A DNA stretch of 64,000 nucleotides. It comes from a virus. The stretch lies in the UHGV virus genome UHGV-1497419. One strand, written 5' to 3'. Positions 3,554 to 31,899 of the stretch are shown piece after piece (the first letter of the stretch is position 1; every line of letters starts with the position of its first letter). Under the pieces are notes generated by a model. It worked only from the letters and a program-made list of their open reading frames with translations. It was not told where the DNA came from and searched no databases. The position numbers were made by a program, and so were the translations under genes.

Positions 3554-5335
3554 TTAAAGCTGCTTGTCAATATTATTTCGAATATCCCCAAGAGTTGTGT
3601 AACCGAACTGCTCAGAGTCACTAAAGACTAAACGTAAGGCACAAGCTGGGTGGTCAAGTACATCTGCAAAACTCTGGAATCCATAGCCATCTATAGCTTT
3701 CAGCTTGTCACCATCCCACATAGGTGCTACACCACCAAAGGCAGATTTCTTAACACCACTATCTGTTTTAGGGTCTTTTGCAAGCATAATCTCTTTACCA
3801 CCAATGCTTGCAAGAGTTGCTTTGACAGCAAATGCAAAGGTGTCACGAGTCATGTACTGGTAAGTGTAAGAACCTACGCCAAACACTACGTTAGAGCTTG
3901 CAAAACCCATTTCATACAGACGCTTCAGGATTTCGTTTGCACGTTCCAGTGTGATAGAGTCACCATAGATAAGGCCGATGTGCTCATCCAGTACCTTAAA
4001 CCCTTTAGAGTTAACAGTTCCCCCAAAGATGTTGTACAGCGTCTTAATAGCTCCATCAATCTCCGCTACAGGACGTGTTACAACGTTTGCAGAACCAACC
4101 ATATAAGCATTCTTCAGCAGTACTGTATCAGCAACTTCAAAGTCTTCTCTGTCAACAACCATTTCGTAGCCTTCTGACAGTAGCCATCCAGCAATACCAT
4201 AGTTAATGTTTTCAAGCTTCATGTTCAGGACAGAGTTCAGCATTGTATCACTTGCCTCCAGCTTGCTTAGGTGTTCGTAATAAGCCTTCTTAGCACACTC
4301 TAAGTGGATTGCTTTATAACCTGTGACAATATGTACAGGGTCTCCAGAGTCAGGGCGAATTACCAGTTTACCATCACGTTCCATAATTTCTTTACGGAGT
4401 GCTGGTAAGATTTCTGACACAGTTCTCCAGAAGTTATAAGTATCTGAAACAATGCTTGCAATACCAGTTGGGTAAGTTTCTGTTAAGAAACGACGGAAGG
4501 TTTGCAACTCACCTTTAAAACGTCTTTCTTCTTCAATCAATTCGTTACCGCCTTCCCAAGCAATGTTTGCACACATTACAGAGTGTTCAGTGGCTGGTAC
4601 AGAGCTACCAATATCAGAGATTGGGTAAGACTGTCCATAGATTCGTTTAGCCGTATACACAGCAGGGAAGCTATCAGTTCCTTTAAAGCTGGTTAAGTGA
4701 CCTACAGCGTTAAATGCGTCATCAGTAAAGCCGGACATACCACGCATAGCAAAGTCATGGCACTGATAAGGTAAATGTAAGTCGTTGTCGCAAGTAAGGT
4801 CAGCCCACTTCTTACAGATACGTTTATAATGCAATGCAATAGTTGCAATGGTACAAGCCTTCCAAATCTCAGCAGAGAAAGCATCCTCCAGATACCCCGC
4901 TACCCAATGGAAACCTGAAACAGTGTTCTGGAAGACAATCATTGGGACACGCATAGGGACAACTGTACCTTCTTCTACAGCGTATACTTCAACTGGTAGA
5001 TAACCTAAGTCGTGAAGTGCTTCCCAATGCTCTCGACCGATAGCATCTTTACCCAGAACACCATTCATGACTTCTAAGATTTCATCAATGGCTTCTTTTT
5101 TATCACGTTCAAAGAAAGTGGCGTTCCAGTGGTCTATCAAGTAATCTTTAACGAAACGTTGAATACCAAAAGCCACTACACCATCAATTGCTAAGGGGCT
5201 GTTAAACCATTTGTCACTACGTGGTGTCAGGTTGAACATCAAATACTCTGTTGCACTAGGATACTGGTAAACATGACCAGATTTGTAAGCATCTGCGTTT
5301 AAACCTGCTGGTACTGCATAAAGTGATTTAGTCAT
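3554..5335 (-). CDS. Nicotinamide phosphoribosyltransferase-like enzyme (NadV/NAMPT family; possibly a Namat-type nicotinamide ADP-ribose transferase)
   Basis: 593 aa; N-terminal DAYKSGHVYQYP matches the NAMPT DSYKVTHYKQYP signature; C-terminal GLIYGDSI...VVFGVGSYTYQ block. Confidence 0.8.
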   Translation of the reverse strand: MTKSLYAVPAGLNADAYKSGHVYQYPSATEYLMFNLTPRSDKWFNSPLAIDGVVAFGIQRFVKDYLIDHWNATFFERDKKEAIDEILEVMNGVLGKDAIGREHWEALHDLGYLPVEVYAVEEGTVVPMRVPMIVFQNTVSGFHWVAGYLEDAFSAEIWKACTIATIALHYKRICKKWADLTCDNDLHLPYQCHDFAMRGMSGFTDDAFNAVGHLTSFKGTDSFPAVYTAKRIYGQSYPISDIGSSVPATEHSVMCANIAWEGGNELIEEERRFKGELQTFRRFLTETYPTGIASIVSDTYNFWRTVSEILPALRKEIMERDGKLVIRPDSGDPVHIVTGYKAIHLECAKKAYYEHLSKLEASDTMLNSVLNMKLENINYGIAGWLLSEGYEMVVDREDFEVADTVLLKNAYMVGSANVVTRPVAEIDGAIKTLYNIFGGTVNSKGFKVLDEHIGLIYGDSITLERANEILKRLYEMGFASSNVVFGVGSYTYQYMTRDTFAFAVKATLASIGGKEIMLAKDPKTDSGVKKSAFGGVAPMWDGDKLKAIDGYGFQSFADVLDHPACALRLVFSDSEQFGYTTLGDIRNNIDKQL

Positions 5336-9284: not shown

Positions 9285-11429
9285 TTACATAGATACTCTA
9301 TCACGAATCTCAGCGATTTTTGCATCGTTCATTCGGGATTCACCTTTAATCTTAGTCCATCCCAGATATCCGCACACCCTGTTAATCACAGAGATATCAT
9401 GTGAATGACAAACCTCACATTCTTCAACATCAGCCTTTGGTCTGTTACCACAATGTTCACAGATTGCTAAGTCAAAGTTAAGCCCCTGATAGAAACCTTT
9501 CAACATCCCTCTTGTAATACAACTTTTAAGTGCTGTTAAGTTTTCTGGGTTAGCTACCCTGACATACTGGATTCTCCCACCTCTACAGATATGGAAGAAT
9601 GGCTCTTCTAAGTCCTGCTTCTCAAATGGTGAGATGTCTGCTGCAACATTCATATGGAAACTGTTTGTAAAGTATTCCTTATCAGAAACACCTTTGATAA
9701 CGCCAAACATATCTCTGAACTGTTTTAGCTGAGTTCCGCAAAGTGATTCTGCTGGAGTACCATAGACGGCATATAAGAAGCCATCTTCATTTTTAAACTC
9801 TTCAGTTTTCATGTTGATGTATGCCAGAACATCGTATGCAAAACTACAGCTTCCAACTTCATGAAGTCGTTTACCTTCAGCAAGAACAGATAGCTCATCA
9901 AGCGCAGTAACACCAAAAGAAGCTGTGAAGGACTTCACAATATCCCAACCAACCTTGTCAGTAGGTTTCTTAGTTCCTTTGTACAGACCACCTTGTGTAA
10001 ATGCAAGAGGGTTAGAACTTGCTGGCATATTAGCAATCATTTCGTAACGTTTCTTGTGGAAACTACGAATCATCTCTAGGTACTTATCAAGCTCTGTCCA
10101 GAAATCTAAACCATTCTCTTTAGAATACTGGTAAATCATTGGTAAGTTCAAAGATACAGCACCAATATTAGCACGACCAACGTAGAACTCTTCTCCATTC
10201 TCGTTAAGATATGGGGATAAGAAAGCTCTGCAACCCATCGGTGAAATTACCTTGCCAGAACGCTCAAAAGCCTCTGCTACAGCACCATGACCAGATACAC
10301 TTAAAAAATCTGGATACATCGCTTTAGAGCAACACTCAATAGCTTTGCTGTACAGTTGGCCTTGACAGATATTCTCATCGTGTCTCTTCTGGTCATGAAT
10401 ATAAACCAGTTTAGGGAATACAACAGGCTTCTTACTCTTACCTTGTCCATTCATGCGAACATCAAGAATGGTGTTTGCAATCATGTATTGCAGTCGGTTG
10501 TCTTCATTAGACATATCTGAGTCAAGTAATCCAAATGTCAAAGTTGTAAATGCAAAATCACCACGGCTACAAGGTACAGTATTTAGTTTCATTTCGAGTG
10601 ACTGGAAACCCTGAGTTAATTCAAGCTGTAGCTGCTCCATGACATAATTGTGGTAATGTTCTTTAGGAATACCGTAAGATGCTGCTTTCTCAGCATGGTA
10701 GCGTAGAGACTTTTTAGCATACGGTACAAGCACCTTATCAATCTCTGCTAAAGTAAATCCACCAAATTGCTGTGCAGTTGCTGAAAGAACTACATCACCA
10801 ATAACCTGTAAGGCTGACAGCACAGACTTCGGTTCACAGTATTCGATGCCAGACATCTCAAAGCCACCTTTCAGTACTTTACCAATGTCAAACAAGCAAC
10901 AGTTAATGCCGCCAAAAATCAGGTCTCTTAAATCGTGGATATAGATAAACCCTTTTTCAATGGCTTCAAGTTCCTCTGGTGTTAAATGGTACTGCTTAAA
11001 GATTTCTTTAGTCAGGTAACCACGAATAATTGAACCTTTTGTAGAAATTAAACTGCTGTCAAAGTTAGCGTTTTCACGGTCACCTAAGAAGAGCGTGTCT
11101 CTAGTCTTTTGGTAAAGCTCATCCCAATTTTGAGCAACCTCTTTCCGGTAATTTCTATATGTTGAGTAAGACTCATAAATCTCGTGATTGACTTCTGCCA
11201 AAGCACCCTCAACAATGCTGTGAATATCATTGACTGAGATGAGTAAATTATTCTGCTTAGTGGACTTTACCAGAATCCTCATAAATGCTGACTCAAGAGC
11301 TTGGGTAACATCTGGTGGGAGTTCTTTATATCCAACCCTGTTAGCTGACTTAGTTACTGCTGCTAAAACTTTTTTGATATCAGGTTCTTCAAGTGAGCCA
11401 TTCTTTTTAATAATCTGTACTTTGTTCAT
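9285..11429 (-). CDS. nrdD: Anaerobic ribonucleoside-triphosphate reductase (class III)
   Basis: 714 aa; C-terminal CEHCG...CEVC zinc site and glycine-radical motif RVCGYLG. Confidence 0.9.
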   Translation of the reverse strand: MNKVQIIKKNGSLEEPDIKKVLAAVTKSANRVGYKELPPDVTQALESAFMRILVKSTKQNNLLISVNDIHSIVEGALAEVNHEIYESYSTYRNYRKEVAQNWDELYQKTRDTLFLGDRENANFDSSLISTKGSIIRGYLTKEIFKQYHLTPEELEAIEKGFIYIHDLRDLIFGGINCCLFDIGKVLKGGFEMSGIEYCEPKSVLSALQVIGDVVLSATAQQFGGFTLAEIDKVLVPYAKKSLRYHAEKAASYGIPKEHYHNYVMEQLQLELTQGFQSLEMKLNTVPCSRGDFAFTTLTFGLLDSDMSNEDNRLQYMIANTILDVRMNGQGKSKKPVVFPKLVYIHDQKRHDENICQGQLYSKAIECCSKAMYPDFLSVSGHGAVAEAFERSGKVISPMGCRAFLSPYLNENGEEFYVGRANIGAVSLNLPMIYQYSKENGLDFWTELDKYLEMIRSFHKKRYEMIANMPASSNPLAFTQGGLYKGTKKPTDKVGWDIVKSFTASFGVTALDELSVLAEGKRLHEVGSCSFAYDVLAYINMKTEEFKNEDGFLYAVYGTPAESLCGTQLKQFRDMFGVIKGVSDKEYFTNSFHMNVAADISPFEKQDLEEPFFHICRGGRIQYVRVANPENLTALKSCITRGMLKGFYQGLNFDLAICEHCGNRPKADVEECEVCHSHDISVINRVCGYLGWTKIKGESRMNDAKIAEIRDRVSM

Positions 11430-11453
11430 TATTGCCCCTTTACATGCTAAAAA

Positions 11454-11469
11454 GGTCTCCGAAGAGACC
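11454..11469 (-). terminator. Rho-independent terminator upstream of nrdD
   Basis: GGTCTC-CGAA-GAGACC hairpin plus U-run on the minus transcript. Confidence 0.5.
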
Positions 11470-11477
11470 CTTTCATT

Positions 11478-11684
11478 TTAAATCTTTTTAGAAAACTTTG
11501 AAACGAGTTTTCTTAGTTTTTCAGTGATACCTAGCTGTATCTCTAATATTTCAAAGATAACCCATAGTAACATGGCTCCAAACAATGAACCTTGTTCAAA
11601 ATCAGTAAATAGGTTAACAACAAGCATACCAATCACAATAGCTGGTGCATCAACAACCAAACCTTCCCAAAGGCGTTTAAGCAT
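11478..11684 (-). CDS. Small membrane protein
   Basis: 68 aa with hydrophobic segments. Confidence 0.3.
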   Translation of the reverse strand: MLKRLWEGLVVDAPAIVIGMLVVNLFTDFEQGSLFGAMLLWVIFEILEIQLGITEKLRKLVSKFSKKI

Positions 11685-11919
11685 TATTCACCTCTGCCAT
11701 AAAATTCTGTAGCGTTCCAACAGGTTTTAGGTTTTGACCGTCAGTTTTCATGATGAATGGCATCTGACGAACTGGCATCTGTGCAATATCCATCAGGTCT
11801 GGCAGTTCATAATCCTGCCCTAACATTCTCACAACATGGTCAATACCACGAGCTTTCGCAAAATTCTTTGCAGTCTCACACTGAGGGCATCCAGTTTTGG
11901 AGTAAATTACATAAGTCAT
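11677..11919 (-). CDS. Glutaredoxin/NrdH-like redoxin
   Basis: 80 aa; CPQC active site near N-terminus; sits between nrdB and nrdD. Confidence 0.7.
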   Translation of the reverse strand: MTYVIYSKTGCPQCETAKNFAKARGIDHVVRMLGQDYELPDLMDIAQMPVRQMPFIMKTDGQNLKPVGTLQNFMAEVNNA

Positions 11920-28596: not shown

Positions 28597-29697
28597 ATGA
28601 CAATTCTGTACAAACAAAATAAAGATGGTTCCTTCAACGTCTGGTCATGTGTTGCTGTAGGTGACAAAGTTATTACAACCTACGGTAAAGAAAATGGCAA
28701 GATGATGTTTGAAGAGTACACAGCAGAGCCTAAAAACATCGGTAAAAAGAATGAGCGTAACGCTGAACAACAAGCTCTCTTTGAAGTTGCTGCTAAGTAT
28801 AAAAAGCAAGTAGACCGCAAAGGTTATGCTTACACAAAAGAGTCTGCACAGAATACTGAGAAGGTAGGTGTACAGCTTGCTCATGATGCTGCAAAGGTTA
28901 GCCATGCAAAGTATCTGAAGTTCCCTGCTGATGCTCAACCAAAACTTGATGGTGTCCGTTGTAGGATTTCAAGAGATGCTGATTTAGTTAGTTTTACGGC
29001 TTATTCTCGTGAGAATACTGTTTACAACGTTCCAGCAGAACTAATTCCAGATTTGCTTTTGTTGCTTAAATTACATCCACAAGTTGAAGACTTTGATGGT
29101 GAGATTTATGCTCATGGTTGGGACTTAGAAGATATTGTATCTATGATTAAGAATGCTGACAATCCAGACCGTCACCTTCTTAAATTCTACTGGTATGATA
29201 TCTGCGACAATTCAAAATCTTGGCCTGAGCGTCGTGAAGTTATTGATAACTCACCTATTGTTGAGCTTGGGGATACCTGTAGAGTTGTTCCTGTGCAGAC
29301 TATCCGTGTAAATTCTTGGGAAGAGTTTGATGAAGCTCATGATAAGTGGGTTGAAGCTAAGTTTGAAGGTGCAATGTACCGTTCAATCTCTGAAGACTCC
29401 TTCTACGAGTGTTGTCACCGTTCATACTTCTTGATTAAGCACAAGAAGATGCACACTGAAGAGTTTAAAGTAACTGGTGTAAAGACTGATAAACGTGGTC
29501 ATGGTAAGTTCGTTGTAGAGACTCTTCCTAACGTCTTTGTAGATGTCTCATGGAAAACCACTCATGAGAAAAAGCAGTATCTGGCTGAGCATCCTGAAGA
29601 GTTTATCGGGAAGCCTTTAACGGTTCAGTTCCAGAAGATGACTCGTAAGGGGTCTTTACAGTTCCCTGTTGGGTTAGTTATTAGGGATTATGAGTAA
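28597..29697 (+). CDS. ATP-dependent DNA ligase
   Basis: Motif I KLDGVRC, motif III DFDGEIYA, motif IV EGAMYR, motif V FLIKHKK. Confidence 0.85.
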   Translation: MTILYKQNKDGSFNVWSCVAVGDKVITTYGKENGKMMFEEYTAEPKNIGKKNERNAEQQALFEVAAKYKKQVDRKGYAYTKESAQNTEKVGVQLAHDAAKVSHAKYLKFPADAQPKLDGVRCRISRDADLVSFTAYSRENTVYNVPAELIPDLLLLLKLHPQVEDFDGEIYAHGWDLEDIVSMIKNADNPDRHLLKFYWYDICDNSKSWPERREVIDNSPIVELGDTCRVVPVQTIRVNSWEEFDEAHDKWVEAKFEGAMYRSISEDSFYECCHRSYFLIKHKKMHTEEFKVTGVKTDKRGHGKFVVETLPNVFVDVSWKTTHEKKQYLAEHPEEFIGKPLTVQFQKMTRKGSLQFPVGLVIRDYE

Positions 29698-29704
29698 AAA
29701 GTTG

Positions 29705-29732
29705 TTGACATAGAAAATTTGGTGAGTATACT
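29705..29732 (+). promoter_or_regulatory. Sigma70-like promoter reading into repeat array A
   Basis: TTGACA - 16 nt - TATACT. Confidence 0.55.
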
Positions 29733-29769
29733 GAGCAGCATAAACCAACGGGTACTCACCAACACCCCT

Positions 29770-30078
29770 TAAGAGTCTTTGAAAAGGGTTTTTAAGTGAT
29801 GTGGGGCGAGGCTCGGTGAGGTGGGGTAAGGCATAGTGCGGTGCTGTTTGGTATGGGTAGTTAGTCTCAGCTACATTAAAATGAGACTTACCTTTTTAAA
29901 GGGTCTTTAAACAGGGTCTTTTAATAAGGTTGTGTGATGTGATGTATGGTGCTGTGGAGTTTGGTTAGGTCCGGTCAGGTATGGTATGGTGATGTGAGGT
30001 ATGGGTGGATGGTAGTAGCCACGTTAAAAATCTACCAAGTTTCTAAAGAGTCTTCTGTTGAGGGTTCTTTATAAACAA
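29770..30078. repeat. Composite repeat array A: GGTCTTT-type direct repeats, two GT-rich tracts with 5-nt GG periodicity, conserved hairpins
   Basis: Order is Y-like / GT tract 1 / hairpin X (GTAGTTAGTCTCAGCTACATTAAAATGAGACTTACC) / Y (GGGTCTTTAAACAGGGTCTTTT) / GT tract 2 / hairpin X' / Y-like; no ORF on either strand. Confidence 0.6.
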
Positions 30079-30094
30079 CTTAACAATCAATTAA

Positions 30095-30700
<606 letters not shown>

Positions 30701-30702
30701 TT

Positions 30703-31143
30703 ATGAATACAAAAGCATTAGCAGCAAAGTTTAGTTACGGTGACACTGTATCACACTCTGAGATGGATACCTTCTTAGGTATTGTGAAGCCAACTTATCA
30801 AGGTGACATTGTTAAGTACGAAGATGAAATGAAGGCTTATGCACTTACACGTCTAAACCGACTTGAGAAGTTTATTGAAAAGCTTCTTAAAGAAGAGAAG
30901 ATTTATCTGGTTGCTTCAATGGGTGTTGGTTATCGTGTTGTTGAACCTAAGCATCAAGCAACTATTGCAAAACGTAAAATGTCTGGTAAGATTGGTCGAG
31001 CTTTAAAGCAAGCCACTCAAGCGATTGAGAATGTGAACACTATGGCACTTAGCCATCAAGAACGTTCACGACTGATTGAACAGCAAAACCACTTAGCTGC
31101 TATGAAAGCTAACATTAACAAGCAACGTAGAAAACCTTTCTAA
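30703..31143 (+). CDS. Hypothetical protein (second gene of repeat-flanked cassette)
   Basis: 146-aa ORF, translationally coupled; basic C-terminus. Confidence 0.45.
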   Translation: MNTKALAAKFSYGDTVSHSEMDTFLGIVKPTYQGDIVKYEDEMKAYALTRLNRLEKFIEKLLKEEKIYLVASMGVGYRVVEPKHQATIAKRKMSGKIGRALKQATQAIENVNTMALSHQERSRLIEQQNHLAAMKANINKQRRKPF

Positions 31144-31153
31144 GTTGACTAGG

Positions 31154-31177
31154 TAGCCTCTTCGGAGGCTCCTTTTT
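31154..31177 (+). terminator. Rho-independent terminator after cassette
   Basis: AGCCTC-TTCG-GAGGCT hairpin followed by TTTTT. Confidence 0.6.
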
Positions 31178-31440
31178 AAAAGGTCTTTAAACAGGGTCTT
31201 TTAATGAGGTTATGTATGGTTTGGTTGGGTGTGGTGGTGTAAGGTGTAGTCAGGCTTGGTGAGGGTAGTTAGTCTCAGCTACATTAAAATGAGACTTACC
31301 TTTTTAAAAGGTCTTTAAGAGGGTCTTTTAACAAGGTTAGGTTAGGTCTGGTGTGGTAGGGTTAGGTGGGGTTAGGTTTGGTGTGGTATGGAAGGATGGC
31401 AGTAGCCTTATAAAAAATCTGCCAAATAAGCTATAAAGTC
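31176..31440. repeat. Composite repeat array B (paralogue of array A)
   Basis: Same Y / GT tract / hairpin X / Y / GT tract / hairpin X' order; hairpin X is identical to the array A copy; GT tract 2 reads (GGTNN) about 12 times. Confidence 0.6.
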
Positions 31441-31442
31441 TG

Positions 31443-31477
31443 TTGACAAGTCAGGTGTTATAGCTTATTTTTATACT
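31443..31477 (+). promoter_or_regulatory. Sigma70-like promoter upstream of secreted-protein gene
   Basis: TTGACA - 17 nt - TATTTT, with TATACT immediately after. Confidence 0.45.
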
Positions 31478-31515
31478 CAATGTAATACAAAATTTAATAT
31501 AACTTTGAGGTCATT

Positions 31516-31899
31516 ATGAAAAAGATTTTATTAGCTGCTGCAATGGTTATGGCAATGAATTTACCAGTCAATGCAACAGAACTTCCAAATGTGGACTTAT
31601 CAGGTGTTCCAGAAGACACTTGCCAGATTGTAAAAGGTGTTGCTCTAGCTAATGGTGAGTTACTTAAACCCATCTCTGAAGAGTCTTTGACAGAGATGAC
31701 TGATAAGGTGACTGACTACCAGTATCGTGTTCTTGCAGAGTATTTCCTGCAATCTGCAAACATTAAAGAGAAACACCATGACGATATTGATGTACAGGCG
31801 ATGCTCAACCACCGTATCCAGTTTAAAGAAGATTTGATGCAAAAAGCTATGTATGGTGTGGAGTATTTCTTAGAAAACAGAAGCTGCACAGGTATTTGA
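31516..31899 (+). CDS. Secreted/periplasmic protein with Sec signal peptide
   Basis: MKKILLAAAMVMAMNLPVNA followed by a likely cleavage site; 127 aa. Confidence 0.5.
   Translation: MKKILLAAAMVMAMNLPVNATELPNVDLSGVPEDTCQIVKGVALANGELLKPISEESLTEMTDKVTDYQYRVLAEYFLQSANIKEKHHDDIDVQAMLNHRIQFKEDLMQKAMYGVEYFLENRSCTGI

Follow-up and report, generated by a model that had tools for sequence, protein, structure and literature searches.

The window analyzed here, a 64,000-nucleotide stretch of the virus genome UHGV-1497419, carries two arrays of GT-rich repeats on either side of a two-gene cassette, which raises the question of what such paired arrays do. The initial annotation, made from the sequence alone, took the downstream array (B) for a diverged paralogue of the upstream one (A) and offered two kinds of explanation, namely the boundaries of a mobile or exchangeable module, or a pair of small RNA genes. 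Judging by the comparisons described below, region 29705-31432 is almost certainly a VIPR (Viral Interference Programmable Repeat) locus, complete and of type II, that belongs to the SUSP1 clade and is carried by a Felix-O1-like phage (Felixounavirus, wV8-like). The arrays read as guide-RNA (vrRNA) genes, in line with the small RNA alternative. The VIPR system, its mechanism and the SUSP1 clade are already described in 2026 preprints, and the functional properties proposed here for the window locus are carried over from SUSP1 by analogy.

Read directly from the sequence, region 29705-31432 holds four vrRNA units, two per array and all on the plus strand, with the tandem units of array A (29768-30045) upstream of the cassette and those of array B (31177-31432) downstream of it. 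All four units, 128 to 150 nt each, have the same anatomy, in which a Y element (~28 nt) is followed by a GT tract of GGYNN pentamers and then by a 3' element of ~40 nt. A four-way alignment matches the units over their full length, with the Y element, the pentamer register and the 3' elements kept, and the sole length difference among them is one block of 20 nt, that is, four pentamers. The units were also recovered as repeat families D1-D4. With 3 or fewer mismatches allowed, the 64-kb window has 31 matches to the pattern (GGTNN)5GGT, every one of them within the four tracts, whereas 100 shuffles gave 0.

Upstream of array A we observe a sigma-70-type promoter, TTGACA-16-TATACT (29705-29732), which has 11 of 12 consensus positions and is kept in all 12 of 12 related loci. 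An inverted repeat, GGTGAGTA...TACTCACC (29719-29767), straddles its -10 box and the array-A transcript start; it is likewise kept in all related loci and may serve as an operator or form a 5' structure. The 5' flank of vrRNA A1 is a type 1 Y element (29768-29799), which can fold into a G.U-rich hairpin and precedes the A1 tract (29795-29855; NN guide in the parsed register GG GA TC GA GG AA AT GC GC TT (AT)). The A1 tail, element X (29856-29896), is a predicted pseudoknot with stems S1 GTAG/CTAC and S2 AGTCTCA/TGAGACT, followed by TTTTT. A type 2 Y element (29897-29928) lies between A1 and A2, and the A2 tract (29924-30003), of 15-16 pentamers in the parsed register, leads into tail X' (30004-30040), also a predicted pseudoknot (S1 GTGG/CCAC, S2 TGGTAG/CTACCA). 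A type 3 Y element (30046-30070), with no tract after it, stands between the last upstream vrRNA and the cassette, which consists of vipr (30113-30700), for a 195-aa RAMP protein that by analogy would bind the vrRNA repeats, and vap1 (30703-31143), for a Vipr-accessory protein of 146 aa.

An intrinsic terminator 3' of vap1 (31155-31176; stem 31155-31170, then a T run) precedes array B. There, a type 2 Y element (31178-31208) forms the 5' flank of the B1 tract (31204-31263; NN guide in the parsed register TA AT TT TG GT GG AA GT CA TT (GA)), which is followed by the B1 tail X (31264-31304). Another type 2 Y element (31305-31335), the B2 tract (31331-31390; TA TA CT GT AG TA GG TA TT GT (AT), again in the parsed register) and the B2 tail X' (31391-31428; predicted pseudoknot, S1 AAGG/CCTT, S2 TGGCAG/CTGCCA) complete the array. 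The promoter of the next gene, TTGACA-17-TATTTT (31443-31471), is outside the system and marks its right edge. Array B tracts have 11-12 pentamers each and all four tracts of the window span 11 to 16 repeats, so that each array is read from these features as two vrRNAs of roughly 100 nt, with 11-16 GGYNN repeats and an invariant pseudoknot tail. The element order that the initial annotation gave for array B (terminator, Y, GT tract, X, Y, GT tract, X', promoter) is all present in the sequence, and hairpin X is identical in the two arrays as claimed (31264-31304 equals 29856-29896). The four-way alignment of the units, in line with the pairwise check that it proposed, confirms the paralogy, with a similarity that spans the Y element, the pentamer register and the 3' elements and not the terminator hairpins alone; its "two copies" are correct as paralogous arrays but not as a unit count, which is four, two per array.

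Felix-O1-like phages, among them wV8, Alf5, and tootiki, share 92-96% identity with the region. It is matched by 231 related records, 117 of which cover the whole query. The existing annotation of the region consists only of "DR_4" or "repeat_region" features ("DR_4" in the wV8 record) plus two hypothetical proteins, and the repeats are not discussed in the genome papers of Felix O1, wV8 and UAB_Phi87. We parsed 40 units from a comparison set of 12 phages (the window plus 11 related loci). Between their fixed flanks, all 40 of 40 tracts are an exact multiple of 5 nt long (45-90 nt), and the tract sequences can hardly be aligned even between phages with >90% identity elsewhere. Per-position information over the same 40 tracts is highest at G2 (1.88 bits), followed by Y3 (1.53 bits; T 90%, C 9%) and G1 (1.04 bits), and falls to 0.11-0.13 bits at N4/N5. 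This bears out the earlier suggestion of selection on the pentamer periodicity rather than on exact sequence. We attribute the multiple-of-5 length rule and the free NN positions to the repeats being a putative protein-read scaffold in which the NNs form a programmable guide.

A protein partner for such repeats was sought by scanning IMG/VR exactly for (GGTNN)7GGT and clustering the ORFs within 4 kb of the listed tracts. Among the matches listed, 49 of 76 loci have a Vipr homologue, encoded on the strand that carries the tracts, and the Vipr family is the only widely shared neighboring gene; homologues of the 146-aa protein (Vap1) co-occur with tracts in 16 of the listed loci. At least dozens of unrelated viral contigs among these matches have GGTNN tracts with free NN and differing flanks; the scan also returned trivial tandem repeats. 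The Vipr family profile has one strong match in the PDB, 36pp_D, "SUSP1 Vipr protein" (E = 6.4e-80), and the protein of window ORF 30113-30700 shares 97.4% identity with the SUSP1 Vipr encoded at the same position. Its AlphaFold2 model (pLDDT 95.2) yields Foldseek matches to Csm3 and type VII Cas7 RAMPs. The contact residues that grip the GGY and the DNA strands are named in the cryo-EM preprint (bioRxiv 10.64898/2026.04.26.720920, 10.64898/2026.04.26.720927), and all 12 of 12 (H17, K33, R39, E71, M72, K82, K88, R138, C173, D177, W178, and R179) occur at the same positions in the window Vipr; most of them are invariant or nearly so in a 43-member Vipr family alignment. At E <= 1e-3 the family, which has a glycine-rich C-terminal motif, numbers 520 clusters, whose members come from phages and prophages across many phyla. 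The window Vap1 is 99.3% identical to the product of the SUSP1 gene at the same position; its accessory role is taken from the preprints (bioRxiv 10.64898/2026.04.26.720920, 10.64898/2026.04.26.720927). A Pfam search assigned no family to either cassette protein, and the PHROGs of both (PHROG 5926 for the vap1 product) are of unknown function.

Several earlier candidate explanations were no longer needed after the neighbor clustering and the PDB 36pp_D match had identified the partner. These were a TRAP-like attenuator, an R-loop/G-quadruplex origin, a type III toxin-antitoxin antitoxin, a boxA/NusB-like or Csp-binding Y element, a Chi-like/RecA-preferred GT tract, a BREX-site (GGTAAG) decoy, an antisense-strand Rho rut site, and a tRNA CCA-end sponge, all of which were dropped.

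The wider set of contigs also shows tracts that differ from those of the window. In L121 (an IMGVR_UViG contig of 14.6 kb), as well as in L075 and L080, we observe GGTNN tracts of 27-47 pentamers, with more than 12 tracts per contig. These tracts far exceed the 9-16 repeats that the preprints report for vrRNAs; they may correspond to the "staggered/overlapping" arrays that the preprint mentions, or to something else. In L116 (~4995-5110) and L128 (~913-1075), what follows the GGTNN tract is not a pseudoknot but a tRNA-like minihelix, in which an 8-bp acceptor-like stem, CTCCCTAC/GTAGGGAG, encloses AAGGTTCGATTCCTT; ARAGORN called no tRNA or tmRNA beside these two tracts. On the minus strand of an unrelated contig (L022, ~10800-11720), every tract is preceded by its own extended -10 promoter-like TGATATAAT and a AACTAACTG leader, an arrangement that points to separate promoters for the individual guides and not to processing of an array.

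The mechanism proposed for the window is that of SUSP1. The two preprints (bioRxiv 10.64898/2026.04.26.720920, 10.64898/2026.04.26.720927) describe VIPR as consisting of a Vipr RAMP, a vap accessory gene, and ~100-nt vrRNAs with 9-16 YNNGG repeats and an invariant 3' tail, which is a pseudoknot in the SUSP1 clade; Vipr is a single-RRM RAMP of ~20 kDa, proposed to predate CRISPR. [quoted passage not shown] Vipr is described there as polymerizing on the vrRNA with one protomer per pentamer, burying G1, G2, and Y3 and presenting N4 and N5; the NNs pair with double-stranded DNA (dsDNA), every third target base being skipped, and the resulting protein-held R-loop triplex blocks transcription with no PAM and no nuclease. 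SUSP1-clade guides are reported to converge on an E. coli satellite phage (same preprints). By analogy, the window Vipr would polymerize on its vrRNAs, bury the GGY and display the NN as a programmable guide; the guides would pair with satellite dsDNA by the one-base-skip rule and block its transcription, and the phage, during infection, would thereby silence a satellite that otherwise parasitizes it.

We located the satellite through its baseplate gene, which has 74-85% DNA identity to SUSP1 agp017 and is found in 474 of 5,426 complete E. coli genomes, and used 12 E. coli satellite islands (L133-L139 and L142-L146) as the target set. The islands are ~12 kb long and encode a large serine recombinase as well as tape-measure and baseplate homologues of the phage. 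Their insertion sites are several (yciI/tonB, a DUF72 gene next to yecN/yecD, ymdF/wrbA, and lafU/dinB), and they often carry an HNH endonuclease, an N6-adenine methyltransferase, and stretches of 1-1.5 kb without annotated genes. Guides were scanned as NNxNNx queries, with the constant last repeat dropped and with shuffled NN order as the control. Across the 12 phages and 12 islands, 31 of 40 guides score above every shuffled control, and three match perfectly (26/26, 22/22, and 20/20).

Three of the four window guides match satellite islands under the one-base-skip rule. Guide A1 (19/20 at L133 16186-16214) and guide A2 (24/28 at L135 14481-14521) match the recombinase gene and the recombinase gene family, respectively, and in both the skipped base is the codon wobble position and the score is above all shuffles. 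Guide B1 (18/20 at L138 9234-9262) matches ~55 nt downstream of a TTGACA-17-CATAAT promoter and is also above all shuffles, by a single position (18 against a shuffled maximum of 17); in the small ORF at this site, the skipped base does not fall on the wobble position. The best score of guide B2 (16/20 at L142 12753-12781) is within the null. At that site, the first eight NN of B2 agree at 15 of 16 positions, antisense in the satellite baseplate gene, after which the guide diverges. The exact full-length NNx pattern of B2 has no match in IMG/VR or in 185,579 GTDB species genomes. The window itself contains no self-targets (best self-match, 14-17 of 20-28). As far as sequence matching can tell, the NN positions of the window carry target-specifying information. 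The initial annotation had suggested selection on periodic or structural properties, and the periodic part stands, whereas variable NNs as structural filler do not.

Turning to the 3' elements, an H-type pseudoknot whose third loop is A-rich fits both X and X'. In X, S2 changes from AGTCTCA/TGAGACT to AATCGGA/TCCGATT in variants from other phages, so that three S2 pairs are changed on both sides, and 97.5% of the cells are paired. In X', S1 changes from GTGG/CCAC to AAGG/CCTT and S2 from GGTAG/CTACC to GGCAG/CTGCC or GTCG/CGAC, with four pairs changed on both sides and 95% paired; the compensatory changes distinguish the A2 tail from the B2 tail and from a satellite-borne tail. Slid controls collapse for both pseudoknots, although the tail variants represent few independent events and the statistics are modest. 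Rfam covariance models, including the preQ1-I riboswitch and other small pseudoknots, gave no relevant match in 29600-31600 at E <= 10. The elements described initially as hairpins X and X' are conserved as stated, but H-type pseudoknot is the better name for them, and both stems carry compensatory changes. An alternative fold of X is a hairpin of -12.5 kcal/mol, and because TTTTT follows X, the element could double as an additional terminator hairpin. One vrRNA tail in a related locus (L011 5163-5195) is chimeric, its S2 combining the 5' strand AATCGGA and the 3' strand TGAGACT from different variants, which breaks stem 2; this tail is probably recombinant and possibly defective.

The Y element, present before every tract, contains two GGGTCTTT-like half sites in ~28 nt, and the double-GGGTCTTT pattern has 3 matches in the window versus 0.01 expected. 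A Y element also stands between vipr and the last of the guides upstream of it. Folded with its flanks (window 29885-29935, 30040-30075, 31170-31210, and 31293-31343), it forms a G.U-rich hairpin of -13 to -16 kcal/mol (z = -2 to -2.8), the Y between B1 and B2 reaching -15.8 kcal/mol (z = -2.8). The outer stem varies in a partly compensatory way between types (CCTCATTAAAAG/CTTTTAATGAGG in L001 versus CCTTTTTAAAAG/CTTTTAATAAGG elsewhere), and RNAalifold gives -3.7 kcal/mol with 5 compensatory pairs, which is weak support. The published VIPR model does not explain a conserved Y, and we found no mention of a Y hairpin in the available preprint text. The fold is suggestive, at most, of a processing signal that releases individual vrRNAs.

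We further observe vrRNA genes in genomes that lack the protein genes. The whole genomes of EC6 (L140/L141) and UAB_Phi87 (L147/L148) contain no vipr or vap, and they have one or two vrRNA genes (EC6, L004 4011-4121; UAB_Phi87, L010 3511-3758) with the register, the tail, and the strong promoter intact. The first UAB_Phi87 guide has a 20/20 one-base-skip match in satellite island L136 (9782-9810). Since these vipr-less relatives keep their vrRNA genes, vrRNAs may have a use without a cis-encoded Vipr; such orphan guides could be used in trans with Vipr from a co-infecting phage or, alternatively, could be decoys that titrate a rival's Vipr. The available text of the two VIPR preprints contains, as far as we found, nothing on vrRNA genes in vipr-less phage relatives. 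The joint reading that vrRNA genes act apart from a cis-encoded Vipr and that their maturation depends on the Y hairpin is offered tentatively, and we hold it to be rather doubtful as a whole.

A vrRNA was also observed on the satellite side, in 1 of the 12 islands by the pentamer scan. In the island of E. coli GN4751 (L137 5054-5180, minus strand), 14 repeats are followed by a tail whose S2 has changed, in a covarying manner, to GTCG/CGAC, and then by a terminator. This agrees with a remark in the preprints that some satellites encode vrRNAs (bioRxiv 10.64898/2026.04.26.720920, 10.64898/2026.04.26.720927). None of the seven islands L133-L139, L137 included, encodes Vipr or Vap (0/7). A blastn search of array B against the 5,426 E. 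coli genomes returned no vrRNA-like DNA, the L137 vrRNA being found only by the pentamer scan.

The comparison across related phages that the initial annotation had called for shows that the presence of the cassette differs between relatives. Phages such as wV8, SUSP1, and Moogle have the cassette, whereas it is missing from the same site in EC6, which has one unit, and in Bas63 and UAB_Phi87, which have two units each; around the cassette, SUSP1 (L005) has 1 + 3 units and the window 2 + 2. Such variation, together with the fact that about half of the 231 records cover the whole query, is what would favor the arrays as recombination boundaries, that is, as homology or recombinase sites for gain, loss, or swap of the two-gene module. 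The order in Bas63 (a tract identical to window A1, then X, Y, and a B2-type unit) also looks like the product expected from a crossover between the identical A1 and B1 X tails, and the L011 tail is chimeric. Phages without the cassette, however, keep one or two intact units, and the locus has neither a recombinase nor a transposase associated with it. A recombination site would need neither the specific matches between NNs and the satellite nor the exact pentamer register, and the same tracts stand beside Vipr homologues in unrelated viral contigs with different flanks. As the cassette appears to encode an RNA-binding effector, the partner of arrays that read as vrRNA genes, the arrays are therefore not taken as boundaries of a mobile or exchangeable module; as a primary function, that proposal of the initial annotation is largely refuted and we consider it very improbable. 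Recombination between tails probably does explain the loss of the cassette in relatives such as Bas63, as a by-product and not a function.

Even less probable, to the point of being negligible, is that the GT tracts are non-guide protein tracks or sponges (TRAP-like or CsrB-like) or G-rich R-loop/G-quadruplex origin elements. Their 5-nt period, conserved triplet and free 2-nt spacer do resemble TRAP sites, they have a strong promoter upstream and are followed by terminator-like tails, and the G-rich non-template strand is located between ligase and nucleotide-metabolism genes. Against this, the binding protein as identified by homology is a RAMP encoded in cis, mere spacers would not match satellite genes at 90-100%, and a G-quadruplex or R-loop needs neither an exact flank-to-flank register nor a pyrimidine after GG. 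The published NN-reprogramming experiments show an effect that depends on the NN, opposite to a spacer role (bioRxiv 10.64898/2026.04.26.720920, 10.64898/2026.04.26.720927).

The window locus occupies the same site as the type II VIPR of SUSP1 (PDB 36pp), with the DNA ligase gene on one side and the gene-93 homologue on the other, and its genes come in the same order. The two loci also agree in their GGYNN repeats, in the Y elements and the two types of tail, and in the satellite family that their guides match. The window locus differs in its vrRNA layout (2 + 2 versus 1 + 3), in its NN sequences, and in its host genus, since SUSP1 is a Suspvirus and the window phage a Felixounavirus. The window provides an independent, purely computational confirmation of VIPR in a second phage genus, and the "DR_4"/"repeat_region" features and two hypothetical genes of wV8-like phages can now be named.

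Among other known systems, the TRAP-trp leader RNA of Bacillus has 11 G/UAG triplets, set apart by spacers of 2-3 nt, and wraps around an 11-mer ring. As in VIPR, a conserved triplet alternates with a free 2-nt spacer, each repeat takes one protein subunit, and the RNA is unstructured; in contrast, the spacers of the leader are without information and it attenuates in cis, whereas the VIPR spacers would be the guide and act on DNA in trans, and the TRAP protein and Vipr are unrelated. In ToxIN (type III toxin-antitoxin), the order is promoter, tandem pseudoknot RNA repeats, terminator, and protein gene. The likeness lies in pseudoknot-bearing tandem RNA repeats upstream of the gene of the binding protein, with terminator-like elements between; here, however, the units are 128-150 nt long and contain a pentamer tract, the protein is a RAMP, and arrays are also found downstream of the genes. 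A ToxN/AbiQ-type endoRNase was not found downstream of the repeats, the protein there having no Pfam match and a RAMP fold.

With the backbones of class 1 CRISPR-Cas (Cascade Cas7, type III Csm3/Cmr4, and type VII Cas7), Vipr shares the RAMP fold, with its RRM core, glycine-rich loop, and thumb. At the locus, we found no repeat-spacer array with identical direct repeats and contiguous spacers and no cas1/cas2, the RAMP fold being the only link. As the preprints describe VIPR, the protein of both systems polymerizes along a guide RNA, both have a periodically interrupted guide-target duplex, and in both a conserved RNA handle caps a variable guide. VIPR is a recently reported way of recognizing DNA by means of an RNA guide, with a 5-nt period in which two of five guide bases are read and one of every three target bases is skipped, compared to a 6-nt period with five bases read in CRISPR; it has no repeat-spacer array, cas1/cas2, PAM, or nuclease, and, unlike CRISPR, it is phage-encoded and aimed at another mobile element.
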